The notes: generated from the sequence alone by a model not told the origin. A stretch of DNA of 64,000 nt from an uncultured Clostridia bacterium (GCA_945875335.1 CAMCKD010000003.1:5693-69692); one strand, 5' to 3'; numbered from the stretch's first letter, positions 4,677 through 33,605 are shown. Made by a program: numbers and translations.

Positions 4677-4678
4677 GG

Positions 4679-16251: not shown

Positions 16252-16740
16252 TTATTCCAGCGCCGCCCGCAGCTTTTTCAGCGCCCGCTTTTCAATGCGG
16301 GATACATAGCTTCTGCTGATACCGGTGCGCTCAGCCACCTCCCGTTGGCGCAGGGGTGTTTCTGTGTCCAGGCCGTAGCGCAGGCGAATCACCAGACGCT
16401 CCTGGTCCGTCAGGCAGCGATCCACCGCCCGGCGAAGCTGCTCCACAGACTCCCGGCCAGCCACCTGTTCCAGCAAATCCACGTCCTCGCTGACCACATC
16501 CATCAGCGCCAGCGGGGCTCCATCCGTTCCCGTGTCAATGTAATCCGACAAGGACACATCCTGGGCACTCTTCCGCCCCGCCCGAAAATGCATCAGGATT
16601 TCATTTTCCACACACCGGGCCGCATAGGTGGCAAGCCTCGCCCCCTTGGTGGGGTCGAAGGTAGTGATGCCCTTGATGAGGCCGATGGTTCCAATGGAAA
16701 TCAAATCCTCCTGGTCGGAGGTTTGGGAGTAGTATTTTTT
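16252..16740 (-). CDS. sigK: sigK 3' segment (sigma regions 2.2 to 4.2; spoIIIC-like half of a split gene)
   Basis: Frame open from 16764 reads KKYYSQTSDQEDLISIGTIGLIKGI..ATYAARCVENEILMHFR..ISRSYVSRIEKRALKKL; no native start codon. Confidence 0.85.
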   Translation of the reverse strand, partial: KKYYSQTSDQEDLISIGTIGLIKGITTFDPTKGARLATYAARCVENEILMHFRAGRKSAQDVSLSDYIDTGTDGAPLALMDVVSEDVDLLEQVAGRESVEQLRRAVDRCLTDQERLVIRLRYGLDTETPLRQREVAERTGISRSYVSRIEKRALKKLRAALE

Positions 16741-18368
16741 AGACGGTTGATGCTCGTGGGTAGGTTATGAGGCGAGTAAATCGCCTCATATTGCTGCCCC
16801 AACTTGAGATACACATCTAGATGGATTTCCTCCTTCGTACTCTCCTTTTTCACAACAATTTTCTCTAAAATCGTCGTAAGAAGTGCCGAGTTTGGCTCAC
16901 CCTCGAAACTCAATTCCCGGTCGAGAACCCGCCGGATTTCGGCTTCATTCAGCTTGCCGTCACCGGCGCGCTCTTCTTCCTTCCGAATGGCATCCAGTTG
17001 GCTTTCACACTCCCGGAGCCGGACATTCAGGGCGTCGTTTCGCTTTTTGAACTCGGGTGCATCCAGCGCCCCGGCAATGCTCAAATCCAGCAGACGATCC
17101 TTCTTTTTCTCAATCTCGTCCATTTCCTCCAGCACCCGGCTGCGGAGCCTGTCATAGTCCACCTCCTTTGGGACGCTGGTAATCACCTTCACCAGAGAAT
17201 CGATGATGGCCTTCTTATCCTTTATCAGTTCCTTGAAGATTTCCGTGAGAATTGCATCCACTTCACTGCTGCGAATCTGGGGGGCAGAGCACCCGGATCG
17301 GCCGTGGCTGCGGTACACCTTGCACTGCCAGACCTCCTGCTTGCCCTTTTTGTTTTCCAGCACCTGCCGGTGGAAGGTAGTGCCGTGTTCTTCGCAGATG
17401 ATTTTTGCACTGTAGGGATACCGGTTTTGAAAGCTGACGCCGCTGCTGTGACTCATGGTTTCTTCTCTCCTTTTCTTATACAGGGCATTTGCACGATCCC
17501 ATAATTCTTCCGGGACAATGGCGGGAATGGACGGGTCGGAGTACATGACCCATTCACTTTCATCCAGAAATGCTTTTTTCTTGGTGCGGTAGTCGAGGCT
17601 GGAGGTCTTGTTGCCGCAGTACCAGCCCTTGTATTTTGGATTCTCCAAAATATGGCGAATGGTCAGGGTATTGAAGGCATTCCCCTCCCGGCTGGTGTAG
17701 CCCATCTCCGTCAGCTTCTTGGAGATACTCCGTGTACCCAACTTCTGGTTGGCGTAGAGGTCGAAAATAATGCGGATAATCTCCGCTTCCTCCGCATTTG
17801 TGGTCAGAACGCAGTCCTTTTTGTCGTAGCCGTAGAGCTTATCATTGCCCAGCACATGACCGTTTTTGATGGCCTGCCGGAAACCGAATTTCAGTCGCTC
17901 TGAAAGTTTCCGAATCTCATCCTGGGCAACACCTGCCATGATGACCAGCCGGAATTCGCTGTCCGTGTCCAGGGTGTTGATATTGTCGTTCTGGAACAGT
18001 ACCCCCACATTGTTTTCCAGCAACTCCTGGGTGTATTTGATGCTGTCCAGGGTGGAGCGGGAAAACCGGGAGATTTCTTTGGTGATGATGAAGTCAAACA
18101 TCCCGGCTTTTGCGTCCCGAATCATGCGGTTGAAATCATCCCGCTTCTTTGTGGTGCCGCCGGAAATGCCTTCGTCGATGTACCCCGGCACAAAGCGCCA
18201 GTTGGGCTTACTTTGAATCAGCTCTGTATAATACTGCACCTGATTTTCCAGACTGTTAATCTGTTCGTCCTGATCTGTGGAAACCCGGGCGTAGAATGTG
18301 ACCCGGAGGGGCAGGTCGTAGATTGACCTCCCCGCCCGCAGCTCAGCACGGATTTTTCTCACATCCAT
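16701..18368 (-). CDS. large serine recombinase (SpoIVCA-like)
   Basis: YARVSTDQDEQ catalytic Ser motif, resolvase + recombinase + zinc-ribbon + coiled-coil architecture; AGGAGG 6 nt before the ATG at 18368. Confidence 0.9.
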   Translation of the reverse strand: MDVRKIRAELRAGRSIYDLPLRVTFYARVSTDQDEQINSLENQVQYYTELIQSKPNWRFVPGYIDEGISGGTTKKRDDFNRMIRDAKAGMFDFIITKEISRFSRSTLDSIKYTQELLENNVGVLFQNDNINTLDTDSEFRLVIMAGVAQDEIRKLSERLKFGFRQAIKNGHVLGNDKLYGYDKKDCVLTTNAEEAEIIRIIFDLYANQKLGTRSISKKLTEMGYTSREGNAFNTLTIRHILENPKYKGWYCGNKTSSLDYRTKKKAFLDESEWVMYSDPSIPAIVPEELWDRANALYKKRREETMSHSSGVSFQNRYPYSAKIICEEHGTTFHRQVLENKKGKQEVWQCKVYRSHGRSGCSAPQIRSSEVDAILTEIFKELIKDKKAIIDSLVKVITSVPKEVDYDRLRSRVLEEMDEIEKKKDRLLDLSIAGALDAPEFKKRNDALNVRLRECESQLDAIRKEEERAGDGKLNEAEIRRVLDRELSFEGEPNSALLTTILEKIVVKKESTKEEIHLDVYLKLGQQYEAIYSPHNLPTSINRLKNTTPKPPTRRI

Positions 18369-18531
18369 GTGCATCCTCCTTTCTTGCCTCAGTATCGCAG
18401 AAAAAGTCCGGCAAGTCCAATGTGCCCAGGATTTTGTTCCGGGATTTGTCGTGAATATCCCGGGAAATCAGTTCCTTATCCAAAAGTGTCTGCAATAGGA
18501 CGCATAGAATATCCTGCTGTACCTCATTCAT
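18343..18531 (-). CDS. small hypothetical protein upstream of and overlapping the recombinase gene
   Basis: 62-aa ORF (MNEVQQDILCVLLQTLLDKELISRDIHDK..); overlaps the recombinase start. Confidence 0.4.
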   Translation of the reverse strand: MNEVQQDILCVLLQTLLDKELISRDIHDKSRNKILGTLDLPDFFCDTEARKEDAHGCEKNPC

Positions 18532-18583
18532 GCCCACTCACCTCGTAACACCCTATGCGTGTTCCTTTTCATCATGCCGCACC

Positions 18584-19444
18584 TCACCGTTCCTGTGCTC
18601 GCTGCCGCTTACGGCAGTCCGCTTCCAGCAGCTTCAAAATCCGCTCCTGAATCCGGGCAACGCTGTAGGTTTTTGGGAAGAATTTACGCAAGTCCTCCAC
18701 CCGAAAGCTGATTTTTTCCTGCTGGTTGGCCTTGGGTTCCCGGAGAATTTCAAAAATCTTATCCATATTCAGTTCCCCGGACTGGCTCAGTTTTTTCATC
18801 TGGATGGCCTGAGACAGAGAGGGAGTGCAGTCCTCGCTCTCCATGGTTTCCAGCAAATCCTGCTGCTCCTGCCCGGTCAGATAGGATAGCTCCACCGCCG
18901 GAGTGAGGGCAATTTTTCCGGCATCCACCATGCTGAGAATTTGGGGAATCAATTCAGTCAGGCGGATGTATCGCTGTACCTGTCTGCCGCTTTCGTTTTC
19001 AGCAATCAAATCCGCCGTCTCCAACTTCCCGACAACTTGTCGGGAAGTTAAGTCCGTCCGCTGTCCCTGTCTGCTCAGGGCATCCATTTTCAGCTTATAG
19101 GCAAAGGCTTTTTCACTAGGAAGTATCTTCTCCCGGTGGAGATTGCTGTCCACCAGTGCAATGGCAGCAGCATCCCGGTCAAGGGCATAAATTAAGGCAG
19201 GAACCGTTTCGATTCCTGCCTTTTGGCATGCGTGCAGTCTCCGATGCCCGGAGATTACTTCATATTCACCGTTTTCCAGAGGACGGACAACCAGCGGGGT
19301 CAATACGCCCTGGGTAAGAACGCTCCACACCAGCTGATTCATTTCGTCATCGTCCTTCACCTGGAAGGGGTGGTTTTCAAAGGGGCGCAGCTTTTGAATC
19401 GGCAGCTGCATGGCCTGTACTTCTTTGATATTACTCAAGGGCAA
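18584..19444 (-). CDS. ParB/Spo0J-like N-terminal nuclease-domain protein
   Basis: LTPLVVRPLENGEYEVISGHRRLHACQKAG ParB box; TTG start behind GAGAGG (ATG alternative at 19411). Confidence 0.85.
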   Translation of the reverse strand: MPLSNIKEVQAMQLPIQKLRPFENHPFQVKDDDEMNQLVWSVLTQGVLTPLVVRPLENGEYEVISGHRRLHACQKAGIETVPALIYALDRDAAAIALVDSNLHREKILPSEKAFAYKLKMDALSRQGQRTDLTSRQVVGKLETADLIAENESGRQVQRYIRLTELIPQILSMVDAGKIALTPAVELSYLTGQEQQDLLETMESEDCTPSLSQAIQMKKLSQSGELNMDKIFEILREPKANQQEKISFRVEDLRKFFPKTYSVARIQERILKLLEADCRKRQRAQER

Positions 19445-19492
19445 TGGTTTCCTCTCTCTTAGATTCTGTATTGCAATATCGTGTGTTCTCCA

Positions 19493-19708
19493 TTATCGGT
19501 CCCTCCGTTTCTGCCAGATGATGTCATACCCCATCACATCCGCAAGCTGAATCGCTTCCCGGTAGCGAAGGGAACCCCGGCTCAGTTTGTTGGAGAAGTT
19601 GGAAATGCTGTCGCTCCAGCCGTATTCCTCGGACAGCAGATCGACCACCTGCTGCATGGTCATGCCGGAGCGGACGATGATACTTTTGATTTCATTTTTC
19701 ACATTCAT
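19493..19708 (-). CDS. small putative DNA-binding (HTH-like) protein
   Basis: 71 aa; AGAGGT 7 nt upstream of ATG 19708; pattern ..SGMTMQQVVDLLSEEYGW..SNFSNKLSRGSLRY. Confidence 0.5.
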   Translation of the reverse strand: MNVKNEIKSIIVRSGMTMQQVVDLLSEEYGWSDSISNFSNKLSRGSLRYREAIQLADVMGYDIIWQKRRDR

Positions 19709-19913
19709 AGTCATACCTCTGATTTCTGTATTGTGATATCAGCATCGAAACTGCCGATATCGGTTATACGGTTTTGATATCGAGTCTTCGGAACAATGCA
19801 AAATTGCACGAAACCGCAGAATGAATACACGCTTCGCGCCAGCGCGATGCGGTGTAATTCTCCTGCGGTTTGGCATAGCATTTTTCTGTTTAGATAAGTC
19901 TTTGGAAATATCC

Positions 19914-20090
19914 TCACATTTCGGACTGTTCCTGATGCCTTTTCCGGCATTCGTACCGCCTGCAGCTGACGATCTCCGCCCGGAAGGTCTGCTTGCAGCG
20001 GCGTTCACAGCTCCGGCAGATGGAGTTGAACTGGATGCGCCCTGCCTGATTGCGGAACAGTTCCCACTCCTGTCCTGTGTATTTCTTCAT
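19914..20090 (-). CDS. 58-aa cysteine-rich protein (not in ORF track, below its size cutoff)
   Basis: Own translation MKKYTGQEWELFRNQAGRIQFNSICRSCERRCKQTFRAEIVSCRRYECRKRHQEQSEM*; AAGGAG 9 nt upstream of the ATG. Confidence 0.5.
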   Translation of the reverse strand: MKKYTGQEWELFRNQAGRIQFNSICRSCERRCKQTFRAEIVSCRRYECRKRHQEQSEM

Positions 20091-20157
20091 TCTGGTTTCT
20101 CCTTCTGTTTCTGTTGATGGTCTCTTGTCTGCAACAAATGCAATAAATGCAGCAAAG

Positions 20158-22563
20158 TTAAGCAGTGGGATTCACAAGAATATGCACATCCGGCGGTCTG
20201 CCGGTTCCATTGTATTCCGGCCGGGTGATTTTGAGATAGCCGTACTCTTCCAGCAGCTCCAGAATGGGAAACAGTTCCTCCGTCTTGGAGAAATACTTGC
20301 CCCGGCAGTTCTGAAACAGCTGGGAGCGCTTGATATCCATAACCTGCATTTTCCGAATCTTCGCCCAGACGAATTTCGCCTTCGCGATGTTCACATCCGC
20401 ACCCATGGTGGAGTAGGCGTGCATGGAATGGGCAAGGAAGTACTTACCGATCTCCATAGCCCGTCCGACGGTTTCCGCAGAGATTTCGTTTTCTCCTTCC
20501 ACCATATCCGCAGCATGGAGCAGCCCCGCAATCCGTAAGATTGCGCCGATGTACTTTGCCGCCCAGTCCGGAAAAATCTGCCCTTCCTCAACCATGAACC
20601 GTTCGTGTTCTTCAAAATAATCCGCGATCATTTCCTCTGCCCGCTGGGACAGCACCAGCGTCTGGGGCTCCTCACCCATGGGCAGTGCCATCAGCCGAAA
20701 GATCAGTTCCCGATACTTATCCCGAACCTCTTTGGGAATTCCCGGTGTGCGGAAGGTTCGAGTGCCAATCCGGGAGGTGGGAAAGGAATACAGAAACCTT
20801 GCCAGCAGCCCCCGCCCAACCATGGTCGTGTTTGCCATGATGCAGTCCAGCACATTGGGCTGCACAGTGAGGATCGCTGTCAGGCAGGGATTGGGAATGT
20901 ACTCTGCTTCCCGGCTCATACGATCCACGGAAATCGGATCACCGCAGTGGGCTTTCAGCCAGGTATCCAGATTAGCTGTGCTGCTGTAGCGACCAGCCAG
21001 AATATCAAAAATGCCGCCCTCTGAGGAAATAACCGACAGCGTGCCGCCATTGTTCGCAAGCAGATTCGTCAGTGCCTCACTGGAGCAATCATCCGCAAAG
21101 AATCTGCGCGGTTTCTCCACCGGTATCGCTTCCAATTCATCCTCCAGCTGCTGAAGCTCCAGTTCCATTTCCCGGTTTTCTTTGGATTCCAGCTTCTTTT
21201 TAATGCCTGTAATCTGCCTCTGTAGTGCCTCCCTCTTTCGTTCACTGGTGCGAATTTCCTCTGCGTGGTCAGCATTGAACTGCATTTCATAATCATACAG
21301 CACTCGGGTCATATCCCGGATGACGCCAGATTTCCGTTCGCCTGGGGCTGCAATCACCAGCGTGTAGAGGTTCAGCGGCTCGTAGTACCCCGGCATGCCC
21401 TGTACCCGGAACTTCCCCTGCAAGGCGGTTGCCAGCACACCCAGACCGATTACCGCCGCCATTCCGGGAGAAGTCTGACTGTTTTCAGAAACAGCGTTTA
21501 CATAATCTCTGACCACTGGTGGAAGTGCAGCCACAGGAAAACCCGGCAGTTCCCCGATGGCAGGTGTCAGGGGAATCACCGGCAAAAACTCCGGCTCTGC
21601 GTCACACTTGGGCTGGTAGGTTTCCGAACATTTCTGGATCGCATTGCGAATGGTGATGGCACCGTAGGTACTGCCGGACTGGGGCCTGTCCCACTTCTCT
21701 CTCATGAGACCGGAGACGCGGAACAGTCGATCCATCCGCATGGCATTTCCGCCTGTCCAGAATGCCAGATGGCTGCACAGCGCCATGTCGGCTTCGGAAT
21801 GTGACTGGAAATTCCCGGTATCCCCACAGTACAGCTTCCAGAAGCGGTTTCCATTTTTGCTTTTCCTCGCCTTATCCAGAAGGTCGCTGTCTTCCGGTGC
21901 AGGGGCGGCAGGGCCGCCAGCCAATGCGTTACCAACTCCTATAGCGGCTGTTACACCATTGGACCCGCTCGATTCGATACTGCGACAAGAATTTACTGCA
22001 TTTATTGCATTTCTTGCAGGGTTCTCGGGTCGCAGCATAAATCGTTCCAGAACCTCTTTCAGCTCCTCCGTGCGGTCACCAAACTCATACCACTGGCAGA
22101 TATCTCCTGTGAGGGTCACATATTTGCTGGTGGCTCCGGCAACATACACCTCCACCCCGGCTTTGTGATTCATTGTGTAGTAGCGCTGGCTGTCATACTG
22201 GAAATCCTTTGCGAAGAAATACAGGTGCAGCCCCTTTTTGCTGGGGCTGAACTCTGTGTAGGTGTGCATGATCTCCACAATGGTTGCCGCCGGTTCCGTG
22301 AAATAGCCGCTGTCGGTGACGCAGTTGTCCAGATCAATGGCGCACAGCCCGCCAAAGATTCCAAGACCGATGCCGTCATACCCCTGTGCCAGGAGGGCGG
22401 TTTCAAAAGGGGCAAAAGTTCCCGGGTCGTTGCTTTTCGCCATCTGCCCGGTGTTGGGATTGTAGGGGACTTTCGTTTTTCTCCCACCACGCTCTTCCAT
22501 ACGCCAGCAGCAGAATCTGCCTTGCGCCAGAATCTCGGGTGGAACTTCGTGATAGTTGTTCAT
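20158..22563 (-). CDS. bifunctional prim-pol type primase with C-terminal DUF3987/YfjI-like helicase domain
   Basis: N-terminus RFCCWRMEERGGRKTKVPYNP..GIGLGI..AIDLDNC prim-pol pattern; central Walker A APGERKSG; AAGGAG upstream of ATG 22563. Confidence 0.8.
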   Translation of the reverse strand: MNNYHEVPPEILAQGRFCCWRMEERGGRKTKVPYNPNTGQMAKSNDPGTFAPFETALLAQGYDGIGLGIFGGLCAIDLDNCVTDSGYFTEPAATIVEIMHTYTEFSPSKKGLHLYFFAKDFQYDSQRYYTMNHKAGVEVYVAGATSKYVTLTGDICQWYEFGDRTEELKEVLERFMLRPENPARNAINAVNSCRSIESSGSNGVTAAIGVGNALAGGPAAPAPEDSDLLDKARKSKNGNRFWKLYCGDTGNFQSHSEADMALCSHLAFWTGGNAMRMDRLFRVSGLMREKWDRPQSGSTYGAITIRNAIQKCSETYQPKCDAEPEFLPVIPLTPAIGELPGFPVAALPPVVRDYVNAVSENSQTSPGMAAVIGLGVLATALQGKFRVQGMPGYYEPLNLYTLVIAAPGERKSGVIRDMTRVLYDYEMQFNADHAEEIRTSERKREALQRQITGIKKKLESKENREMELELQQLEDELEAIPVEKPRRFFADDCSSEALTNLLANNGGTLSVISSEGGIFDILAGRYSSTANLDTWLKAHCGDPISVDRMSREAEYIPNPCLTAILTVQPNVLDCIMANTTMVGRGLLARFLYSFPTSRIGTRTFRTPGIPKEVRDKYRELIFRLMALPMGEEPQTLVLSQRAEEMIADYFEEHERFMVEEGQIFPDWAAKYIGAILRIAGLLHAADMVEGENEISAETVGRAMEIGKYFLAHSMHAYSTMGADVNIAKAKFVWAKIRKMQVMDIKRSQLFQNCRGKYFSKTEELFPILELLEEYGYLKITRPEYNGTGRPPDVHILVNPTA

Positions 22564-22851
22564 GCTTGATCTCCTTTTCAAAATCGTATGTATGCCGCTC
22601 TGCCCGAACCAGTTCCTGCCCGGCATTTCCCCCGGCGTTTTCTCCTCCTAGGCACGCTCATTTCTCACCGCGATGCTTCCCCGGAGGACATATCCCTTTC
22701 GGACGGTCATTCAGTTTTCAAGCTTCACCCGTAGTCCCAAATGCGGTTTTCGTTGCATTCGGGCAAGCAACTCTGTCCGTATTTTACAACATAAAAAGGG
22801 CCTTTCCCGGATATCCAAAAGGATGGAAAAGACCCACAAAATTTGATATTT

Positions 22852-22879
22852 CCACGGTTATAGACAGCCGTGGTATAAT
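22852..22879 (+). promoter_or_regulatory. TG-extended -10 (TGGTATAAT) overlapped by inverted repeat CCACGG-N10-CCGTGG (candidate operator)
   Basis: -10 at 22874..22879; palindrome arms at 22852..22857 and 22868..22873; 30 nt upstream of the XRE start. Confidence 0.45.
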
Positions 22880-22908
22880 GGAAGAAAACTGTTTTGGAGA
22901 CTGCTTTT

Positions 22909-23760
22909 ATGAATACAAAACTGACCATACAGGAGAGACTGAAGGACCTGCGGGTGGAACGGCACCTGACTTTGGAGCAGCTTGCGGAGGAAACCGGCGT
23001 TTCCAAATCCGCACTGGGCAAGTATGAATCCGATGACTTCAAGGACATCAGCCCATTCAGTATCGTCACCCTGGCGAAATTCTACGGCGTGTCCACGGAC
23101 TATCTGCTGGGACTGACGGAAACAAAAAATCACCCAAACACAGACCTGCACGATCTGCATCTGGGTGATGATATGATTGAATTGCTGAAAAGCGGAAAGC
23201 TCAACAACCGGTTGCTGTCTGAGCTGGCTCTGCACAAGGACTTCCAGCGGTTCTTGGTGGACATTGAGATATTTGTGGATCGCATTGCCGATATGCGGAT
23301 CAACGACATGAACGCCATTCTGGAAGCCAACCGAAAGCAAATCATGGAAAAGCACAATCCGGGCGAGAATGATCTGTATGTGCGCACCCTGGAGCTGGCG
23401 CAGGTCAGCGAGGAAAACTACTTTACACATGTGGTTCACAGGGACATTGACGGTATCATGACGGATCTTCGGGAAGCCCACAGAAAGGATACCACCACTG
23501 CCGATACCGCTTCTCCTGTTGCCGAAATTCAAAAGCAGATGGAGACCGCCATGCACTACGAGGGAACTGAGGAAGAAAAGAAAGCCCGGCTGTTCCTGGC
23601 TACTCTCGGCATTGATTATGACAAGCTGACCCCGGAGGAATTTGTCACACAGATCAACATTCTCAAGAAGTCCGAACACCTGAAAAGCCCCAATAACCAG
23701 CGCGGGAAAGCTTTGCCCTATCAGGTGCATGGGAAAGGGAATCGGAAAAGGCATAAGTGA
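22909..23760 (+). CDS. XRE-family HTH regulator with long C-terminal extension
   Basis: LKDLRVERHLTLEQLAEETGVSKSALGKYES HTH_3 pattern; about 200 aa of additional helical sequence. Confidence 0.85.
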   Translation: MNTKLTIQERLKDLRVERHLTLEQLAEETGVSKSALGKYESDDFKDISPFSIVTLAKFYGVSTDYLLGLTETKNHPNTDLHDLHLGDDMIELLKSGKLNNRLLSELALHKDFQRFLVDIEIFVDRIADMRINDMNAILEANRKQIMEKHNPGENDLYVRTLELAQVSEENYFTHVVHRDIDGIMTDLREAHRKDTTTADTASPVAEIQKQMETAMHYEGTEEEKKARLFLATLGIDYDKLTPEEFVTQINILKKSEHLKSPNNQRGKALPYQVHGKGNRKRHK

Positions 23761-24141
23761 CGAAAATAGAAAAGGCATCTGTTTTTCAGGTATCGCAAAC
23801 TGAGTAACCGTTTTGGCAAGCAGTGTCTGGGTGCTACCCAGCCTTATTTTGCTTGTTGGGGCGAATCCCCCAATCCCCCAGATCAGCACTGCATGCTGGC
23901 TGCGCATTTTCAAATGCTGATTTGGCAAGCCTGATCGATGCACAATTTCGTCTATTGGAAAGTGGCGGATACCTCACAAAGCCATCAAGGGCGGCGTGTT
24001 TCACGCCGCCCTTACAGAGATGCATAGGCAAAATATACGGATAGAAATGTCAAATCTCTCTTTCCCATTTCGCAATTCTGGTGTATAATAACTTCATCGA
24101 AAGCAATTTTATCATGGGCTACCAGCCGGAAAGGAATCAGT

Positions 24142-25275
24142 ATGAACTACATCCTAAAGCATTTTGATACGCCGCTGATTTCCTTTTCTGCCCGGAGCGG
24201 TGCGGAACCGGATATTCAGATTCTGTCCGTAAACGAATCCTGCCGGGAGCTGTTCCCACTGGATTTGGCGGAAGTCAGTCCTGCCGGTCTGGAATCCTGG
24301 ATTCGTCACAGAACCATCCCGCGCAACCGGGCGTATGTGGACAATCTTCTCAGCACCATGGGATTGAGTCTGAATCGCCCGATGGATGTGCTGAAGGTCT
24401 CCAAAGGACTGAGCCTGAACGATTGCTACTGGGTAACCGAAGCGGAGTTCTCCGGCAGTTTTGAGAAATTCAATCTCTATGACAATCGGTTCAGCCGCGT
24501 GCTGGGGCAGATCGCCTTCACCGGCTTTGGCAGTTCCGGCTCCATCCTGTCCTCCAGCCCGGAGTTTACCACGGGCGGTATGCTGCCCAAATGCTGGCGC
24601 AGAGAGGGCGGCATCATCCGCCTCTACAAAGGCGGTACCCAAGGTGCCTCCAACACCGGGTTCGAGCCTTACTCCGAGTTCTACGCCTCCCAGATTGCCA
24701 AAATTCTGGAAGTCAACGCCATCGACTATTCCATTTCCCGCTGGAAGGAGACCCTGTGCTCCACCTGTGAGCTGTTCACCAGCAAAGACATCTCCTTTGT
24801 ACCTGTGGGGAGAATTGTCCGCAGCGGCGGTATGAAAGCCGTCCGGGCGTTCTGCGAATCACTGGGCGAGGAGTATGTGCAGGCATTGAACGACATGATC
24901 GTTTTTGATGCCGTCATTTTCAATACCGACCGGCATTACGGGAATTTCGGTTTCCTCGTAGACAGCCACACCAACCAGATCATTGCCCCGGCTCCGCTGT
25001 TTGACCACGGCAATGCGCTGCTGAATCTGGCAGGCGCCGAAGCCCTGAAGAGCAAGGAAAACATTCTGAAGTATTCCAAAACCCAGATGCCCTGTGTATA
25101 CGATGATTTCGTAGGGGAAGCCAAAAAGGTCATGACCCATGAGCACAGAAATCATCTGCGCAAGCTCCTGGACTTCCGCTTCAAGCGGCACAGCCGATAC
25201 AACCTGAGCCCCAATCGGATGGCTCTCGTGGAGTTTGCCGTGCAGAGCAGAGTAAAGGAACTGTTGGAAGAATAA
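24142..25275 (+). CDS. HipA-like serine/threonine kinase (putative toxin)
   Basis: HipA_C catalytic pattern FNTDRHYGNFGF..PLFDHGNAL; AAAGGA RBS. Confidence 0.75.
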   Translation: MNYILKHFDTPLISFSARSGAEPDIQILSVNESCRELFPLDLAEVSPAGLESWIRHRTIPRNRAYVDNLLSTMGLSLNRPMDVLKVSKGLSLNDCYWVTEAEFSGSFEKFNLYDNRFSRVLGQIAFTGFGSSGSILSSSPEFTTGGMLPKCWRREGGIIRLYKGGTQGASNTGFEPYSEFYASQIAKILEVNAIDYSISRWKETLCSTCELFTSKDISFVPVGRIVRSGGMKAVRAFCESLGEEYVQALNDMIVFDAVIFNTDRHYGNFGFLVDSHTNQIIAPAPLFDHGNALLNLAGAEALKSKENILKYSKTQMPCVYDDFVGEAKKVMTHEHRNHLRKLLDFRFKRHSRYNLSPNRMALVEFAVQSRVKELLEE

Positions 25276-25418
25276 CGCAATGCCCACCGATCAATTCTGA
25301 CCGGTGGGTGTTTTTCGTCATGTGTAATACTCTTTCCATTCCTATTGTATTTCTCGCAAAATCACAGATCTCCTTTAAAAATATAGAGACTTGTGGGATT
25401 TTGTTTTACTGCAATGAA

Positions 25419-28400
25419 TCAATTGTTTTCCTCAAAGTTCTCGACCTGCTCCATAACTTTTCGGAACACCTCAGGGCTGTACTGCGGTGGATAGCCATTC
25501 TTGATGAGGCATACTTTGATATCAAATTTGAGTTGATCGCGGACAATCTGATTATTGAGCCAGTCTGCAAACGAGGATTTCGTGTCAATAATCTCCTTAA
25601 TCTTTTTTGCCAGAGCCTTGCACTTGTCATTTACAGAGATGCCATTGACATTGCGATCCTCGCCGTATTCAAAATTATACTCGTCCCGCAGCGCCATCAG
25701 AATATCGTAAAACGCTTTTTCCTCAAATGTCAGCCCGATTTTCCGGAAGCTTTCCCGGTCTGCATGCATTTCTCTCAGGATTCGGAGTGCCTGCTCGGTC
25801 GCATTGCGGATGATTTCTTCCGAAGTTACCTCCTGCGCCTCGCCCGCTTCTTCCTCCGTGAGATGTTTGCGGCGCTCATGGTACTCCCGGATTGTGGCTT
25901 CCAACATTTCCTGATACTTTTTTGCGGCAACCTGGTTTGTTCTGCTATAGTCCGTTATCTGTTTACGAAGCAATTTAACCAAAACTTCCAGCTTGGATGC
26001 AGGCAGCCTTACATCAGAGAGCTTTTCCGTAAACTCAGGACTGAACAGATCCTCTTCCTCGCCTTCGTCAAGAATACCTTCCACCTTGCTGTAGCTCAGC
26101 GCCTCTTCGACCATCCTTGCCACATGACGGTTCATGCTATCAGTATCCACATCACTGGTGCCGCTCATCTTGCGAACAAATCCAGCTATTGCCATAAAGC
26201 ATTGGGCGAGAGAAGATTCTTCTTCACCCAGTTCGCCGGAAGGCTGGCAGATATCATAAGCTGCACGCATACGCTTTACATTGGTTAGGAAATACTTCTG
26301 AAAAGAAACCCTTTTGACGGCTTTGCCCCCGTTTTTCTCCACATTCAGCTCCTGAGTTGAAATAAATACATATTCTGCCGCTCTGGCCAGCAATGTATAT
26401 CTTTCTACCGGATTGCCGTTTGGATTGAGGAAAGGCTTCAGATCAAAGCCTGCAAACAAATCTTTCAGGATTGCCAGTTGTTCCCGGAAAACTTGCGTTG
26501 CCTGCTCCACATCGTCCTGCGTTGGAGCAACCGAACTGTCACCTCCGTACAGCTTCATGGCCTGACGCATATTCCTGCGGATACCAATATAGTCAATCAC
26601 CATGCCGTATTCTTTTCCTGGGTATTTGCGATTCACACGACTGATGGTCTGGATCAACAGATGCTTTTGCAGAGGTTTATCATTGTACAAGTAGGTAAGC
26701 GTCGGAACATCAAAGCCTGTAATCCACATATCCACAACGATGACAATGTGGAAATTTGATTTTTCCTGTTTGAATGCGATGTCCAATGCGTCCGAGCGCT
26801 TCCCATTTTTCACGCCGCCCAGATAATTGTACATATCCGGCTTATCATTGCTGCCTACGCTGGCAACCATCGCCATAAACGGCATCGGCTTCAGTTCTCG
26901 CAGTTCTTCTTCCGTAGCAGCAACTCCATCGGGAGTTTTCTTTTCCTCAAACCATTCCGGGTATTTTTCCTGGAACTTTTTCAGAAGTTCGTAGGCAATC
27001 GGTCGGCTGGAGCAAACAATCATCGCCTTTTGTATCCGGTCGGGGTCGTTTGCGCAGGCGGATACATAGTGATCGTGAATATCCACAGCAAGCCGCTCCA
27101 GGCGGGAAGGCTCTCCCAGTATGACTTCCATGGAACTCATGGCTTTTTTGCTGGCTTCAATATCTTCCTTGGTTGCCCCATCCTCAGCGCACTTTCCGTA
27201 GTACTCCTCAATCTCCTTCACTTTCTTCTCATCGAGAAGAACTTTGGCGATTCTGGGATGGTACTTGATAGAAACCGTCAGTCCGTCGGCAACTGCCTGA
27301 TCCATAGTATAGCGATCGATTTCGTCGCCAAAGGTTTGATAGGTTTCGGCAATAGGCGTGCCCGTAAAGCCCACAAAAGTAGCTTGAGGGAATGCCTCCC
27401 GCAGTACCTTCGCATAGGGTTTGGAAATCATGGCTCGCATATTCTCGTCAGCATCCTTGCTGAACTGAATTTTTTTGGAATGCTCCAGCTGGGTTCTGTG
27501 GGCTTCATCCGAAAAACAGATAATATTGACCCGTTTGTTGATCAGACCCACTTTATCATCTTCGCGGTCGCAGAATTTTTGAATGGTGCAGATATAGAAG
27601 CCGCCGCTTTCCCGGGCACCCAGTTCCTGACGCAGCTCTTTTCGATTTTTTACAACCTTGACCTCGCCGAGATTCAGGAATTCGGTACTCTTGGTGAATA
27701 GCTTCGCTCCCTGCTTTTGCAACTCATCCCGATCCACAATCATAACGATGGTTGGGGAGCCAATCTCCGGCACATCGGTGCAGCGCAGAGCCAGTTGTCG
27801 GGCCAGGAAAGCCATGGTGTAGGTTTTGCCGCAGCCGGTTGCGCCGAAATAGGTGCCGCCCTTTCCGGTTTTCTCCCTTACAGATCTCGCAATGCTCTGC
27901 TTCAGCTTGCGGGCAGCAAAGAACTGGGGATACCGACACACGATTTCCACTTCATCGCTGTCATAGATACTGTCCTGGAAGTAGATGTAGTCACGGAAGA
28001 TTTCCAGGAATCTGGCAGGACTGTATACGCCCTGAATCATGGTCTGCATTTCATCAAAAGGCATGGTAGACAGCTTGTCTTCCTCATTGACACGCCGCCA
28101 GGCATAGAAATGCTCATATGGGGTACGAACCGTACCCAGTCTGGTTTTCACGCCATCCGAAATACAGGCCAGCGGACAGTAGTGCAGCAGATGGGGGATA
28201 TCACGCCAATAGCGGATATTGATCTGCTCCCACGCATCGAAAATGGTCGCGTTGCCGTCTGCCGGATTCTTCAGTTCCATAATGCACAGCGGCAGGCCAT
28301 TGACATACAGCAGAATATCCGGGCGGCGGGTCTGTACCTGACCATTGTTGGTATACTCTACCGCGAACTGGTTGACCGCACGGAAGATATTTTTCTCCGG

Positions 28401-28748
28401 CTCATCAAAGTTGATCAGCTGCACCATGCGGGGAATGCCGCTCTGGGGTGTAAACTGAATGCCATTAACCATCCAGCCATAGACCTTATGTAAGGTTGCA
28501 AAATCACTCTCCGCGCCAACCAGCCGAACGGTATCCATGATCTGCCGGATTTCCTCAGTGGTCAGATCGGGGTTGCCGGAGCGCAGAAACTGCTCCTGAT
28601 CGTCATAGTACAGCACATCCCGTTTGGAATTTCGGGACATACTCTTTCCGGACAGGTACTGCCAACCTTCCGCCTCCAGCATGGACAAAAAGGTGGCTTC
28701 AAACTCCCATTCGCAGTAGTGACCATTGTAGTTCTGTAGTTTGGCCAT
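25419..28748 (-). CDS. hsdR: Type I restriction enzyme R subunit
   Basis: 1109 aa; N-terminal nuclease region, GATGCGKT Walker A, FSDEAHR DEAH box, TGFD helicase motif. Confidence 0.9.
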   Translation of the reverse strand: MAKLQNYNGHYCEWEFEATFLSMLEAEGWQYLSGKSMSRNSKRDVLYYDDQEQFLRSGNPDLTTEEIRQIMDTVRLVGAESDFATLHKVYGWMVNGIQFTPQSGIPRMVQLINFDEPEKNIFRAVNQFAVEYTNNGQVQTRRPDILLYVNGLPLCIMELKNPADGNATIFDAWEQINIRYWRDIPHLLHYCPLACISDGVKTRLGTVRTPYEHFYAWRRVNEEDKLSTMPFDEMQTMIQGVYSPARFLEIFRDYIYFQDSIYDSDEVEIVCRYPQFFAARKLKQSIARSVREKTGKGGTYFGATGCGKTYTMAFLARQLALRCTDVPEIGSPTIVMIVDRDELQKQGAKLFTKSTEFLNLGEVKVVKNRKELRQELGARESGGFYICTIQKFCDREDDKVGLINKRVNIICFSDEAHRTQLEHSKKIQFSKDADENMRAMISKPYAKVLREAFPQATFVGFTGTPIAETYQTFGDEIDRYTMDQAVADGLTVSIKYHPRIAKVLLDEKKVKEIEEYYGKCAEDGATKEDIEASKKAMSSMEVILGEPSRLERLAVDIHDHYVSACANDPDRIQKAMIVCSSRPIAYELLKKFQEKYPEWFEEKKTPDGVAATEEELRELKPMPFMAMVASVGSNDKPDMYNYLGGVKNGKRSDALDIAFKQEKSNFHIVIVVDMWITGFDVPTLTYLYNDKPLQKHLLIQTISRVNRKYPGKEYGMVIDYIGIRRNMRQAMKLYGGDSSVAPTQDDVEQATQVFREQLAILKDLFAGFDLKPFLNPNGNPVERYTLLARAAEYVFISTQELNVEKNGGKAVKRVSFQKYFLTNVKRMRAAYDICQPSGELGEEESSLAQCFMAIAGFVRKMSGTSDVDTDSMNRHVARMVEEALSYSKVEGILDEGEEEDLFSPEFTEKLSDVRLPASKLEVLVKLLRKQITDYSRTNQVAAKKYQEMLEATIREYHERRKHLTEEEAGEAQEVTSEEIIRNATEQALRILREMHADRESFRKIGLTFEEKAFYDILMALRDEYNFEYGEDRNVNGISVNDKCKALAKKIKEIIDTKSSFADWLNNQIVRDQLKFDIKVCLIKNGYPPQYSPEVFRKVMEQVENFEENN

Positions 28749-28794
28749 AACGATTCCCCCGATACCTAAGGAAAGGTATTGATTATTTTACAGG

Positions 28795-29544
28795 CTAGAA
28801 CAGCTTGTTGAAATCAACGGTGTAGCCCATCGCTTTCAGCTCTTTCAGTAAGTCAACCTGCCAGTTTGCTGTGTTCGTGTATACAACGCCAGACAGGTCA
28901 GAAGGCATTTCGATCCCCGAATCTGCCAAGATTACCACATGCCTTCGTCCAAGCTTACCCATGAAATAGCCTGCTTCAAAGACCACATTCTGTCGTGCTC
29001 GTGGCTGCATAGTGTCGCCGGATTGCGCTTTCGCCAGATCATCCGCAGTAAACAGACAGATCGCACCGCTTACATCACTGTACTGTTCAAACTTTTCGAT
29101 GATGGTGTTCCCCTGGTTTGCCTGCTCAGAAAGGATAATTGCTTCGATATCCTGCTTTTCCACAATTCGTGCAACAGAATGCTTTAATTCGCCATCATGT
29201 CCGTGGACGATGAATATCTTGTTGAAAAAACTGGGTAAATCTGTCGCAGGCTCCAAGTCCGGTGCCTCCATTTCACTCAGATAATCGGCAAAGGTAAGTT
29301 TTGTCGCTTCCAGATCACGCTTGCAAAATGAAATCAAATCAGAATCATCTACATAAACACTTGGCGAAAACCTTGTTTTTTGAAACTTTGATAACTCTAT
29401 ACTATCAGCACCGTACTTTCTAGAAAGAAATCGTTCCGTTTTTGTATGCCATGCCGTAAATATAGGTGCTCGTTTTGTGGCACGGCTGGCAATGAGATCA
29501 TCAATCTCATCGCATATCTCCTTCAGCTTTTCATAGTCACTCAT
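28795..29544 (-). CDS. TIR-like (Cap12/Pycsar-TIR, PF10137-type) effector domain protein with ~105-aa N-terminal domain of unknown function
   Basis: KIFIVHGHDGELKHSVARIVEK..AIILSEQANQGNTIIEKFE..PRARQNVVFEAGYFMGKLGR pattern; ATGA overlap with the hsdS stop; GAGGAGGGG RBS. Confidence 0.75.
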   Translation of the reverse strand: MSDYEKLKEICDEIDDLIASRATKRAPIFTAWHTKTERFLSRKYGADSIELSKFQKTRFSPSVYVDDSDLISFCKRDLEATKLTFADYLSEMEAPDLEPATDLPSFFNKIFIVHGHDGELKHSVARIVEKQDIEAIILSEQANQGNTIIEKFEQYSDVSGAICLFTADDLAKAQSGDTMQPRARQNVVFEAGYFMGKLGRRHVVILADSGIEMPSDLSGVVYTNTANWQVDLLKELKAMGYTVDFNKLF

Positions 29545-30680
29545 GTTCTTTTCCCCTCCTCGAGAGAACCTTTAATCAGGATTGGACAAATATCTTGGAT
29601 TTGAATTTTCAGTCGATCGGAAATTTTCCTGCGAGCTATATAGACAGCATATAGTTCCACTATTGATTGCTGCACTTTTTCTTCCGGGATGGGAATCTCA
29701 ATCTCAAAAAATCGATCCAGATCAAGGTTGGTTCTGATACTTGAATCGCTCATAAACCATCCTCGTCTATCAGTCTCTTTACGCAAAAACCAAATCATTA
29801 TATATTCGGGAATTACTGATTTTTCATTCACCTCAAAAACTGTGTATGCCGGGGAAATGATAACCGGTACTTCCATGTCACAGAGTGCAATTCTAATGCA
29901 CTCATCCCGACCAGTCTGCATCCCCGAAAACGCAAACTGTCCTTTTTTAACTAGTTTATACTTTTTGAGATCAACACCATTAACATCAGCGACAGAAGGC
30001 ATAAATTGCTTTGAAATGTTTATTCCCTGAACACTTTTGATTTCTCCATCACCGTTTCTATTGTCTACTTCACGCAACAATTTGCTTAGGTGCTTTTGGG
30101 GAGCCATATGCTTCACATTATCAATTTGCGCATCCAACACAATCTTCAAGTCTTCCAATCCACGCTCATAGCTCTGCTGGTTGGCTACCATGGATTTGTA
30201 GACATTAACATACTGTTGCTGGGTTTCAAAATCAGGTAGTTTGAGTTCAATAGAACACAGATCCTCCCAGTTATAGAATTCAGTTGAACTCCCCCACGAA
30301 TTCGTTATGACATATCTGTCAAATTCCGGGCGATTAAAGTACATATATAGCCAATACGCATTCAGAACTTTTGTGGACTCTGGTTTTACCCGGAAAACAA
30401 CATAGTCCTCTGTGCAGATCACTGTTTTTCCAAGATCGTTATAGGCAATGCTGAATTTTTCCCCATTTCGGGAAGTGCGGTGATTGAATACAAATTCCCC
30501 GGGATTGGCAATCTGGAACTTACTCAAATCTCTGCCATTCAAATCTGCTTTGGTAGTCATAAGCTGCTTGAGATTATTGACACCACGAACATCCTCGACA
30601 GAATACAGTAGATCCTGATTGGTATGTTCCAGCAGTTCCAGCAAATCACCCAGCTTATATTTATTCAATCCCATAGCCAA
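29541..30680 (-). CDS. hsdS: Type I R-M specificity subunit
   Basis: 379 aa, two target-recognition halves separated by conserved helices; overlaps hsdM by 20 nt. Confidence 0.85.
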   Translation of the reverse strand: MAMGLNKYKLGDLLELLEHTNQDLLYSVEDVRGVNNLKQLMTTKADLNGRDLSKFQIANPGEFVFNHRTSRNGEKFSIAYNDLGKTVICTEDYVVFRVKPESTKVLNAYWLYMYFNRPEFDRYVITNSWGSSTEFYNWEDLCSIELKLPDFETQQQYVNVYKSMVANQQSYERGLEDLKIVLDAQIDNVKHMAPQKHLSKLLREVDNRNGDGEIKSVQGINISKQFMPSVADVNGVDLKKYKLVKKGQFAFSGMQTGRDECIRIALCDMEVPVIISPAYTVFEVNEKSVIPEYIMIWFLRKETDRRGWFMSDSSIRTNLDLDRFFEIEIPIPEEKVQQSIVELYAVYIARRKISDRLKIQIQDICPILIKGSLEEGKRT

Positions 30681-32265
30681 TCCCCCTGAATGCCTCTTTC
30701 AGCATTTTCTGAGACTGCTTCTCGGCAGCAAGAATCTCCCGCATTTCCTGCTGGATGCGAGCCATTTCCTTGGGATAATCAATCTCCAGATCGTGGTCGA
30801 TAAATTCAATGTACTTACTGGGAATCAGTGTCCAGCCGTTTCCTTCTATCTCGCTCTTTTTCACACTGCGGTACAGCTCCGGCACCTCATAATGCTCCCC
30901 GTCTGTGCCAACAGACTGCCATGTGTGATAGATGTCAGCCGCTTTCTGAATCTGCTCCGTGGAGAGGAATACTTTCTTTTTGTTTTCTCCCTTTACCGGA
31001 TTTTCCGTCCATGTGCGCAAATCCATGAAGAGAATCTCGTCCTCCCGGTTGCGCAGGTTCCGTCCGTGGTAGCTGCCGCCCTTTTTGTTCTGATTCAGAA
31101 TCCACAGGGTAACGCTGATATCCGTGGTAATAAACAGTTCCCGGGGCAGAATGATGATGGCTTCCACCTTGTCATTGGCAATGAGCTTCTGACGAATGTC
31201 CTTGGTATCGCTGTCACCCAGAGCACCGTTGGCCAGCAGGAAGCCTGCAACACCATCCAACGGCTTCAGGTGGGACAGTATATGCAGAATCCAGGCATAG
31301 TTGGCGTTGCTCTCCGGGGGCGTGCCATAGTCTACCCATCGGGAGTCCCCCTTCATATTGTCATCATACCAGCCCTTCAGATTAAACGGCGGATTGGCCA
31401 TGATATAATTGAAGTAGAGGCCCTTATGCAGATCGTTGGTGAAGGAAGAATCGTTGGTTTCACCCAGATGGTGGCTCAAACCGCGCAGCGCCAGGTTCAT
31501 TTTGGCAAGGCGGTAGGTGGCAGCATCCTTCTCCTGACCGTAAATATTGATACGGCTGATATCGCCCTGCTTGGCCTTCACCAGCTCCGCGCTCTGGATG
31601 AACATACCGCCGCTGCCGCAGCAGGGATCGTACAGAGTGCCGTCGAAAGGCTCAATCATGGTGGCAATCAGCTGCACCACATCATGGGGCGTATAAAATT
31701 CGCCCTCTTCCTTCGTTGCGTTGACCGCAAACTCTTTGAGGAAATATTCGTATACCCGGCCAATCAGATCTTTTTCCTCGCCAAATGCTTTGTGGCTGAT
31801 CTTATTGACTTCATCCACAATTTTCTTGATATCGTTGGGAGCCAGATTCCGGGTTGTGAACGTACCCTCGATGAAGCAGCCCTTCAGTCGGGCATCGCTG
31901 GCCGCAATGCTGTGCAGGGCGTTGTCCAGCGCCACATTCAGCTGGGGCGCCGGTGTATTGATAATAGTAGACCAGCGGGCATCCATGGGAAGATTGTAAG
32001 TGCCGTCCGTAAAGGTGGCATCTTCAAAAAATGCCGCCCAGATTTCAGGATCATCCGGATCCAGTCCCTGTGCCATCACATCCTGCCGCAGTTTTTCCAC
32101 GCCGTCCTCAAACTTCTCGCCGATAAAACGCAGAAATACCAGCGTCAACATCATGTCCCGCTTCTCAAAAAACGAACCGGAATTCCGAGCCTGCCGCAGG
32201 ATATCTCTGCACTTGAACAGGATTGCATCTAAATTGAGTTTCTCTTCAACCTTTTTCTTAGCCAT
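30661..32265 (-). CDS. hsdM: Type I R-M N6-adenine DNA methyltransferase subunit
   Basis: 534 aa; HsdM_N region, DPCCGSGGM SAM motif, IMANPPFN catalytic motif. Confidence 0.9.
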   Translation of the reverse strand: MAKKKVEEKLNLDAILFKCRDILRQARNSGSFFEKRDMMLTLVFLRFIGEKFEDGVEKLRQDVMAQGLDPDDPEIWAAFFEDATFTDGTYNLPMDARWSTIINTPAPQLNVALDNALHSIAASDARLKGCFIEGTFTTRNLAPNDIKKIVDEVNKISHKAFGEEKDLIGRVYEYFLKEFAVNATKEEGEFYTPHDVVQLIATMIEPFDGTLYDPCCGSGGMFIQSAELVKAKQGDISRINIYGQEKDAATYRLAKMNLALRGLSHHLGETNDSSFTNDLHKGLYFNYIMANPPFNLKGWYDDNMKGDSRWVDYGTPPESNANYAWILHILSHLKPLDGVAGFLLANGALGDSDTKDIRQKLIANDKVEAIIILPRELFITTDISVTLWILNQNKKGGSYHGRNLRNREDEILFMDLRTWTENPVKGENKKKVFLSTEQIQKAADIYHTWQSVGTDGEHYEVPELYRSVKKSEIEGNGWTLIPSKYIEFIDHDLEIDYPKEMARIQQEMREILAAEKQSQKMLKEAFRGIGYGIE

Positions 32266-32322
32266 GGGATTTTACCTTTCTTTATGTACAGTGGGAACGC
32301 AAAATGCAACATCTCACGATAA

Positions 32323-32351
32323 AATATACCACATTGCGTCATTTTTTTCAA
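32323..32351 (-). promoter_or_regulatory. sigma-A-type promoter (TTGAAA-17-TATATT, TG-extended) for the hsdM operon
   Basis: Minus strand: -35 at 32351..32346, -10 at 32328..32323. Confidence 0.6.
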
Positions 32352-32496
32352 TATGGCTGCCACATAATAAAACAGCGCTCACCAGACGAGCTGGTGGACG
32401 CTGCCTCTATAGAGATACCTATCAGATTTTTTCCTTTCAATGTCAGGAGTAATCATGTTCTGCTCACAATTGCAATATTCATACCTGTTGGAAGTA

Positions 32497-32763
32497 TCAG
32501 TTCTCGACCATCACCTCCAGCATCATCCGAGCTCCCAGGCGGAAGCTGTTCTGGAACAGCAGACATTCTGCCATATCCTGAAATTCCCGCACACTGTCTG
32601 CATACCGGGAGAACAACTCCTTCTGGGTATCCGTCATGGTAGCCTGGAGCTTTTCTTCGTTCCGGCTGATTAGTTGAAGGGCTTCCTTGTATTCCACACA
32701 GGGGCATGTGTCATATTCTGTTGGTTCGATATTGCCGTACCAAAATTCTTCAAGAATTCTCAT
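32497..32763 (-). CDS. small conserved transposon-associated protein (DUF6809-like)
   Basis: MRILEEFWYGNIEPTEY..; ATGA overlap with the upstream TnpV-like gene. Confidence 0.5.
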   Translation of the reverse strand: MRILEEFWYGNIEPTEYDTCPCVEYKEALQLISRNEEKLQATMTDTQKELFSRYADSVREFQDMAECLLFQNSFRLGARMMLEVMVEN

Positions 32764-33119
32764 GTCGCATCCTCCCCGTAAATTAGCTCCTGGAGTATGA
32801 TTTCCTCTGCCCGGTTCCGGATATTGTTCATAGCACCAACCCAAGCCATCGGGTCAGCAGCTTTCAAGCCCTCTGTCACGCCCTCGGCGGTTTTCATCTG
32901 CTCGATTATCCGATCCAGCCTGTCCTGCGCCTGCTCATTCAGGTCAGCCAGATAAGTCCACAGCTTGCCGGACAGAATCAGGCAGTTGTACTGAATCGGC
33001 TTGTGCTCTTTCAGATACTCCCGGCGCATCCGCCCCCACTTGCCGATGGGGCGTGTTTCTTCCGGCAGTTCCAGGTCAGGAATGAAGTAATCGCCCACTC
33101 GAATGTATTGCATTTCCAT
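32760..33119 (-). CDS. TnpV-like transposon-encoded protein
   Basis: ..YIRVGDYFIPDLELPEE..IGKWGRMRREYLKEHKP..LILSGKLWTYLADLNEQA pattern; AAGGAGG 7 nt before ATG 33119. Confidence 0.65.
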   Translation of the reverse strand: MEMQYIRVGDYFIPDLELPEETRPIGKWGRMRREYLKEHKPIQYNCLILSGKLWTYLADLNEQAQDRLDRIIEQMKTAEGVTEGLKAADPMAWVGAMNNIRNRAEEIILQELIYGEDAT

Positions 33120-33407
33120 AGTCATGCCTCCTTTACCTCGGTACTGTTATGATACCGAAGGATCGGGATGCAGTCGAATGTGCCGCCTTGCAAAGTTTAT
33201 TACATTGATGTAACAAACTTGAAAATTTTACGACTTTATTACATGTCAGCAACCATCCATGCAGCGTTCAAGCCCGGCAAGTGTCAACTACCTGCCGGGC
33301 TTGTCCCTATTCACATCAACACCGCATTCCAGTGGATTTTCGCGGTTCTGCCATAGTACGCGGACAAAATTGCACCATTTGTCCTCCATAGAAAACTTCC
33401 GCGGGCA

Positions 33408-33605
33408 TTATCCCTTATTCATAATATGGGCCACCAGGCGCAGGTTTCGTTCCACCAGGATGTTGCGGGCTTCGATGTCGCCTTGGGCGCAGAGGGCCAG
33501 ATAGTGTCGTTCTTCTTCCTCAGTGAGGGGCTTGGGGAAGCTGCCGGTGGAAAGCTGCAGGGAATAGAGCAGACTGCTGAGCATCAGCCATGAGGAAAGC
33601 AGCAT
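33408..33605 (-). CDS. sigK: sigK 5' segment (pro-sequence + region 2.1; spoIVCB-like half); last 4 codons and stop are element-derived
   Basis: MLLSSWLMLSSLLYSLQLSTGSFPKPLTEEEERHYL..GDIEARNILVERNLRLVAHI then MNKG*; GAGGTGA RBS. Confidence 0.85.
   Translation of the reverse strand: MLLSSWLMLSSLLYSLQLSTGSFPKPLTEEEERHYLALCAQGDIEARNILVERNLRLVAHIMNKG

Follow-up and report, generated by a model that had tools for sequence, protein, structure and literature searches.

A TIR-like gene of a catalogued phage-defence candidate family, carrying a portable N-terminal domain, sits as cargo in a Type I restriction-modification operon of a Clostridia bacterium

The stretch of DNA analysed here (the window) comprises 64,000 nucleotides from an uncultured Clostridia bacterium (GCA_945875335.1, CAMCKD010000003.1:5693-69692). 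It holds a Type I restriction-modification (R-M) operon of four genes only, in the order hsdM-hsdS-X-hsdR. Gene X, the subject of this work, corresponds to the 249-aa reading frame that the initial annotation had placed between hsdS and hsdR, and its translation contains all the motifs quoted there. The operon and the parts of gene X are laid out as follows:

32323..32351 (-), best sigma-70-like promoter match upstream of hsdM, TTGAAA-17-TATATT with extended TG, 10/12, a consensus match only
30661..32265 (-), hsdM, Type I methyltransferase (N6_Mtase E=2e-86, HsdM_N)
29541..30680 (-), hsdS, Type I specificity subunit (PADLOC Specificity_I E=2e-114; Methylase_S)
29553..29561 (-), ribosome-binding site of gene X, GAGGAGGGG, 8 nt upstream of the ATG and inside the hsdS 3' end, read from the sequence
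28795..29544 (-), gene X, 249 aa with an ATG start, a two-domain protein and member of the PADLOC candidate family PDC-S35
29260..29544 (-), N-terminal domain (N-domain) of gene X, residues 1-95, a four-helix bundle in the AF2 model, proposed sensor or regulatory module
28798..29220 (-), C-terminal TIR-like domain of gene X (PF10137), residues 109-249, Cap12/PycTIR type, predicted NADase
28975..28977 (-), codon of E190, predicted catalytic glutamate of the FEAGYF motif, aligned with SfSTING E84
25419..28748 (-), hsdR, Type I restriction/translocase subunit (HSDR_N, SWI2_SNF2, T1RH-like_C; PADLOC REase_I E=6e-243)

Gene X is embedded in the R-M operon and apparently co-translated with it. As described earlier, its start codon shares the tetranucleotide ATGA with the hsdS stop (29541-29544) and has a ribosome-binding site of its own, and both points are borne out by the sequence. 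This tight junction recurs in related loci, mostly as ATGA together with a GGAGG encoded in the hsdS 3' end. On the other side, 46 nt separate the gene X stop from the hsdR start, and no convincing minus-strand terminator was found within the hsdM-hsdS-X-hsdR block. The promoter proposed upstream of hsdM is still the best match on the minus strand, but promoter-like matches number 14 against a shuffle expectation of 10.4 +/- 3.3, which they do not exceed. The promoter call is thus weak evidence, and the reading of the block as a single operon leans mainly on gene spacing.

The spacer between gene X and hsdR also contains a hairpin with an 8-bp stem (28760..28781), with no T-run after it on the coding strand. 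This hairpin prompted the idea of an integron-like recombination site at the cargo boundaries, which was rejected when the junctions of 38 loci were compared: only the hsdS 3' end and the hsdR ribosome-binding site are common to all of them, and the hairpin is not conserved.

The whole operon is itself the cargo of a mobile element. A sigK-type sigma factor gene (window 16252..33605) is split at approximately codon 68, with residues 27-69 of B. subtilis SigK mapping to 33542..33414(-) and residues 68-224 to 16740..16270(-). The element, its neighbours and the signalling genes of the window are:

16741..33413 (no strand), skin-like element of ~16.7 kb, placed by SigK mapping, interrupting the sigK-type gene and carrying the whole operon
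16701..18374 (-), large serine recombinase adjoining the 3' sigK fragment (Sigma70_r2/r4)
22894..23760 (+), HTH_3 protein of 288 aa, on the element and convergent with hsdR
24142..25275 (+), HipA-like kinase of 377 aa (HipA_C E=1e-5, below the Pfam cut-off), convergent with hsdR
8884..11022 (+) and 11261..13120 (-), two GGDEF proteins outside the mobile element that carries the operon

In addition to the HTH and HipA-like genes, which may form a HipBA-like toxin-antitoxin or defence pair, the element carries a ParB-like gene, a DUF3987/NrS-1-type primase, a DUF6809 gene and TnpV. The two GGDEF proteins probably serve ordinary signalling. No CD-NTase or Pycsar cyclase model of PADLOC matched any of the 41 other window proteins, in agreement with the earlier remark that gene X has no cyclase partner here. 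Among these 41 proteins (hsdM, hsdS and hsdR excluded), PADLOC did match PDC-M03A, PDC-S07 and capH, as well as one mad2 (E=4e-25) and one MTase_II, the last two pointing to a further methyltransferase somewhere in the window.

Gene X is a member of a catalogued phage-defence candidate family and lies in a position typical of that family. Over its full length, N-domain included, it matches the PADLOC-DB v2 model PDLC05005 (PDC-S35; E=6e-92, 306 bits), with residues 1-248 aligned to profile positions 1-262 of 264, and four further PDC-S35 models match it as well. The PDC ('phage defence candidate') models stem from a published 'guilt-by-embedding' screen, which drew on genes lying inside BREX, DISARM or Type I R-M systems, and the PDCs are predictions (Payne et al. 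2024, bioRxiv 10.1101/2024.01.29.577857). Both the family and the embedded position are therefore already in a public defence catalogue, and the phenomenon of embedding has been published, so the initial annotation's view of the locus as a candidate for an undescribed defence arrangement does not hold. Nothing structural sets gene X apart from the catalogued family. What is added here is the mapping of its catalytic residues onto SfSTING, the description of its N-domain as a portable module common to several effector classes, and a census of the operon slot that it occupies.

The term PDC-S35 was not found in the literature searched, and public records label the homologues of gene X 'nucleotide-binding protein'. 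The family is nevertheless abundant, with thousands of homologues in gut Firmicutes. A protein search returned >7600 homologues, the best 120 of which are all ~250 aa long, with query coverage of 99-100% and identity of 60-97%. In the phage collection searched, full-length gene X was not found; only four records match it, all over the C-terminal domain only.

The C-terminal half had been assigned by eye to the PF10137-type TIR-like effectors, and an HMM search supports this assignment: PF10137 (CAP12-PCTIR_TIR) matches residues 109-225 with E=5.2e-37 and 126.9 bits against a cut-off of 24.7. The PADLOC PycTIR model also matches gene X (E=2e-9). In a Foldseek search with the AlphaFold model of gene X, the top PDB matches were the TIR domain of SfSTING/Cap12, 7un8 (E=6e-6) and 9lmq, while a profile of 45 family members matched Cap12 (9lmq, E=5e-11, and 7un8) and PycTIR (8jsj, E=3.5e-6).

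The active site of SfSTING comprises F6, R78, N80 and E84, together with D110 contributed in trans (PMC9402430). In HMMER alignments (chain numbering +8), these residues correspond to F111, R184, N186, E190 and D216 of gene X, and all five are invariant in a 45-sequence alignment that reaches down to 34% overall identity. The glutamate of FEAGYF, singled out in the initial annotation, is thus the counterpart of the catalytic E84. Since the five NAD-site residues are all preserved, the best-supported reading of the sequence is that the TIR half holds an active NAD-cleaving site that would need TIR-TIR packing. Some TIR domains produce signalling molecules instead. In the full-length AlphaFold model the TIR half is of moderate confidence (pLDDT 53-88, pTM 0.50), and the model consequently gives no reading of inter-domain geometry or autoinhibition.

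The N-terminal ~105 aa had resembled nothing familiar, and this impression stands. No Pfam family covers the N-domain in profile scans, and fold searches returned generic helical bundles only, with no significant relative in the PDB (best E ~1) or among viral models (best E ~0.5). The domain itself is modelled with confidence: for residues 1-100, AF2 gives a mean pLDDT of 93 and a pTM of 0.83, with helices at residues 3-19, 27-44, 49-56 and 67-93. The possibility that the N-domain is a divergent DUF4145, a helical domain found at the HsdR N-terminus in two related loci (L010 and L012), was considered and dropped, as none of 140 N-domain proteins matched DUF4145 at E<=0.1.

When 1.84 billion cluster representatives were searched exhaustively with phmmer, 141 proteins proved to carry the N-domain. 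These carriers were sorted with purpose-built domain HMMs and Pfam; 140 were scanned, many of them short fragments. PF10137 was found in 50, TIR_2 in 19 (five of which also match PF01582), DUF4062 in five, AbiH in two and a DpnII/MboI-type nuclease fold in one. Overall, the N-domain was found joined to six different C-terminal domains, and it is thus a portable module, combined with one or another of several effector domains from protein to protein. Three proteins (P0122, P0125 and P0247) have a tandem N-N-TIR-like form, which suggests that the N-domain may work as a pair.

The two halves of the protein also differ in their evolution. All-pairs identity is 41.5% for the N-domain vs 67.1% for the C-domain, and one mosaic protein (P0004) shares 55% identity with the window protein over the N-domain and 94% over the C-domain. 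A shared module that combines with swappable toxic domains, evolves faster and recombines is what a sensing or regulatory half usually looks like. On the basis of this architecture and evolutionary rate, the N-domain would have that role in a single-protein defence gene, although a function purely in oligomerisation or autoinhibition is equally possible.

The genomic settings of the family were surveyed in two directions. With gene X as bait, 18 full-length homologues were collected from species-representative genomes. Seven lie in hsdS-X-hsdR operons of the same R-M lineage as the window (L001-L004, L008, L011 and L016), and two in a different Type I family, in which HsdR carries DUF4145 and EcoEI_R_C (L010 and L012). 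One is found between PglZ and BrxL of a BREX system (L007), and two are in Type III-like settings adjoining N6_N4 methylases (L005 and L015), one of them with a ResIII helicase. Another two have other settings (L006 and L009), and four have no R-M context (L013, L017, L018 and L021). The linkage to R-M genes that the initial annotation had proposed to survey is thus seen, for Type I operons, at nine of the 18 loci, and it is not near-exclusive. R-M or BREX operons hold about two thirds of these species-level loci, and gene X may therefore have a functional link to restriction systems in general.

The setting varies with distance from the window. In the loci examined, closer relatives (~63-65% identity) were always found in hsdM-hsdS-X-hsdR operons. 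Distant full-length homologues (33-39% identity) include one on a 6.6-kb mobilisable plasmid, one on a 12.4-kb plasmid next to an integrase and an AbiEii toxin, and one between nar and moa genes. HsdM and HsdR remain 77-87% identical across related loci, vs 54-65% for gene X. The closest loci belong to Lachnospiraceae, Oscillospiraceae and other Clostridia, in genomes assembled from samples of rumen and of animal and human gut. Neither a cyclase nor a conserved partner gene, including a ThsA-like one, was found beside gene X across the neighbourhoods examined. In three operons that also carry the TIR-like gene (L035, L038 and L039), a Thoeris-like pair (SIR2_2-STALD and a weak ThsB_TIR match; about 11164..13296 in L035) lies directly downstream of hsdR, making up a three-layer defence cluster.

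In the other direction, the window HsdR was used as bait and recovered 80 metagenomic operons (L048-L127) with 77-84% HsdR identity, of which 77 show the hsdS-hsdR junction. This junction is empty (gap <=27 bp) in 49, L060 among them, and holds gene X in six, three of which have a second cargo gene. Other cargo fills the remaining 22, in at least 11 clusters. Under provisional names based on BLAST to L011 and motif reading, these other cargos include AbiJ_NTD3/HEPN-like proteins, KAP-like P-loop NTPases, a reverse-transcriptase-like protein, Ser/Thr kinases, a canonical TIR protein, a PIN-like protein and a Fic protein, as well as unknowns. Filled slots cluster in the sub-lineage nearest the window (HsdR >=81% identity). 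The R-M lineage thus occurs without gene X, and gene X without the R-M lineage, identifying the hsdS-hsdR junction as a cargo hotspot.

Individual junctions show further combinations. For example, L011 carries a second cargo of 441 aa (3850..5175), with AbiJ_NTD3 and protein kinase domains, between the TIR-like gene and hsdR, and in L058 and L072 a second, canonical TIR-like gene follows gene X. In L065, a 396-aa slot cargo (4205..5395) has a weak N-domain-like start (residues 5-66, E=2e-9 with the purpose-built HMM) joined to an AbiJ-type C-terminal region with an RxxxxH motif. It is a possible additional effector partner for the N-domain, and it occupies this very slot in the R-M lineage of the window.

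Taken with the domain analysis, these settings make it reasonably probable that gene X works on its own as an abortive-infection gene, one protein uniting sensor and effector, and is carried as interchangeable operon cargo. The protein would be inactive in the uninfected cell. A phage-derived cue would act on the fast-evolving N-domain and change the oligomeric state of the protein, allowing the TIR domains to pack. D216 of one protomer would then complete the site formed by F111, R184, N186 and E190 of its partner, as D110 does in the SfSTING filament. NAD+ would be hydrolysed, and the infected cell would no longer support phage growth. Embedding would provide co-expression and co-transfer with R-M as the first line of defence, and need not imply mechanistic dependence on this particular HsdMSR.

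A precedent for this sensor-NADase logic is DUF4062 (Swarozyc), a TIR-like NADase that is activated by the phage portal via a separate sensing region (10.64898/2026.05.01.722283). Like gene X as proposed here, it combines the two functions in a single protein, and five representatives fuse the N-domain of gene X to DUF4062 itself. However, Swarozyc belongs to another TIR-like family, and the sensor of KpSwz is a C-terminal winged-helix region and not an N-terminal bundle.

The initial annotation had also raised the possibility that the trigger of gene X is linked to the R-M complex. Gene X would then resemble PrrC or Ronin: it would be held inactive under the restriction complex, or would monitor it, and would fire when an Ocr-, ArdA- or Stp-type protein disables the complex. 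In a variant of this explanation, it would sense anti-restriction DNA mimics directly, as PARIS does. The position between hsdS and hsdR, with its ATGA overlap, is like that of prrC within ecoprrI, a Type IC locus, where an abortive-infection effector is likewise co-expressed from inside a Type I R-M cluster. The spread of gene X over Type I (9 of 18), BREX (1) and Type III-like (2) loci also speaks for a guarding role, as does the report that Ocr inhibits Type I R-M, Type III R-M and BREX. Ronin and EcoR22I are known cases of R-M-linked cell death set off by anti-restriction proteins. PrrC, however, is an anticodon nuclease kept masked by physical association with EcoprrI. It resides almost exclusively inside Type I R-M loci (Payne et al. 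2024, 10.1101/2024.01.29.577857), whereas gene X is TIR-like and has this association in only 9 of its 18 loci. Gene X is found with two divergent Type I families (HsdR with T1RH-like_C vs DUF4145 and EcoEI_R_C), by PglZ/BrxL and by N6_N4 methylases, a range of settings that makes a specific physical partner unlikely. It also occurs alone, on the 6.6-kb plasmid and between nar and moa genes, and the slot in this R-M lineage is mostly empty or filled with unrelated cargo. A trigger tied to this one R-M complex is therefore unlikely, which weakens the earlier suggestion, and the cargo pattern fits embedding as already published and speaks against masking of the PrrC kind by a single specific complex. 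These counter-points bear on the complex-bound version and not on direct sensing. Both versions considered, a role in guarding restriction is unlikely, but it would be of real interest if shown.

Other explanations start from the TIR domain. Bacterial TIR proteins often signal, and gene X might, like ThsB, sense infection and make an ADPR-derived messenger for an effector encoded elsewhere. The second TIR-like gene after gene X in L058 and L072, and the SIR2-STALD and ThsB pair just after hsdR in L035, L038 and L039, speak for such a role. Yet no partner gene is conserved beside gene X, the pair in L035 has a ThsB of its own, and the window operon has no adjacent ThsA-type effector gene; moreover, the best Pfam match of gene X is PF10137 and not ThsB_TIR. 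Among the families searched, solved structures or named roles are found for only two kinds of PF10137 member, Cap12 and PycTIR, both of them terminal effectors, and the Pfam and NCBIfam names likewise denote effectors, Cap12 being named an NAD+ hydrolase. The same N-domain is also fused to AbiH and to a DpnII-like nuclease fold, both effectors, which suggests that the C-terminus is where the effector sits. A messenger-producing gene X accordingly has a small chance of being correct. Less probable still is that gene X is an orphan CBASS or Pycsar effector that answers a cyclic nucleotide from an unlinked cyclase, such as c-di-GMP from the GGDEF proteins of the window. The resemblance to Cap12 and PycTIR, the activation of SfSTING by c-di-GMP and the two GGDEF proteins favour this idea, but gene X lacks a STING, SAVED or cNMP-binding domain (its N-domain having neither a Pfam match nor a fold relative), and the NCBIfam Cap12 equivalog models score it at only 44 and 39 bits against cut-offs of 450. 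Furthermore, the 41 window proteins include neither a CD-NTase nor a PycC, the GGDEF genes are not part of the mobile element, and the homologues travel without cyclases.

In summary, gene X is not CBASS, Pycsar or Thoeris, and has only the effector domain in common with them. With Cap12/TIR-STING (SfSTING) it shares the PF10137 subfamily, the best structural match and the NAD-site residues, including the in-trans D110, and it is probably activated by oligomerisation too. It differs in lacking the STING/SAVED domain and the CD-NTase, and in the reversed domain order, which places its putative sensor at the N-terminus. With PycTIR it shares the PF10137 TIR domain, but neither the cyclic-nucleotide-binding domain nor the pyrimidine cyclase (PycC) partner.

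For the self-contained sensor-effector reading, the locus offers a testable residue set (E190 and D216), a separable N-terminal module and natural operons in which the slot is empty, holds gene X or holds other cargo. Should the N-domain be a sensor, whatever triggers it would be relevant to several effector classes straight away. A bolder proposal, to which we give only an outside chance, is that the N-domain is a previously unnamed, widely shared infection sensor able to drive five or more kinds of effector (PF10137 TIR-like, canonical TIR, DUF4062, AbiH and DpnII-like nuclease), and that it may respond to a phage anti-restriction protein or to some other inhibitor shared by Type I R-M, Type III R-M and BREX. 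If this were true, the N-domain proteins would make up a family of restriction guardians with direct recognition of the inhibitor. This would account both for their repeated landing in restriction and BREX operons and for their ability to act alone. This proposal, too, would be of real interest if shown.

One further locus illustrates the variety of these operons. L012, which belongs to the second Type I family, carries two tandem copies of gene X (247 aa and 251 aa; 9199..10756) between hsdS and hsdR, whose N-domains share 14% and 28% identity with that of the window, and a signal-peptidase S26 gene lies between its hsdM and hsdS.
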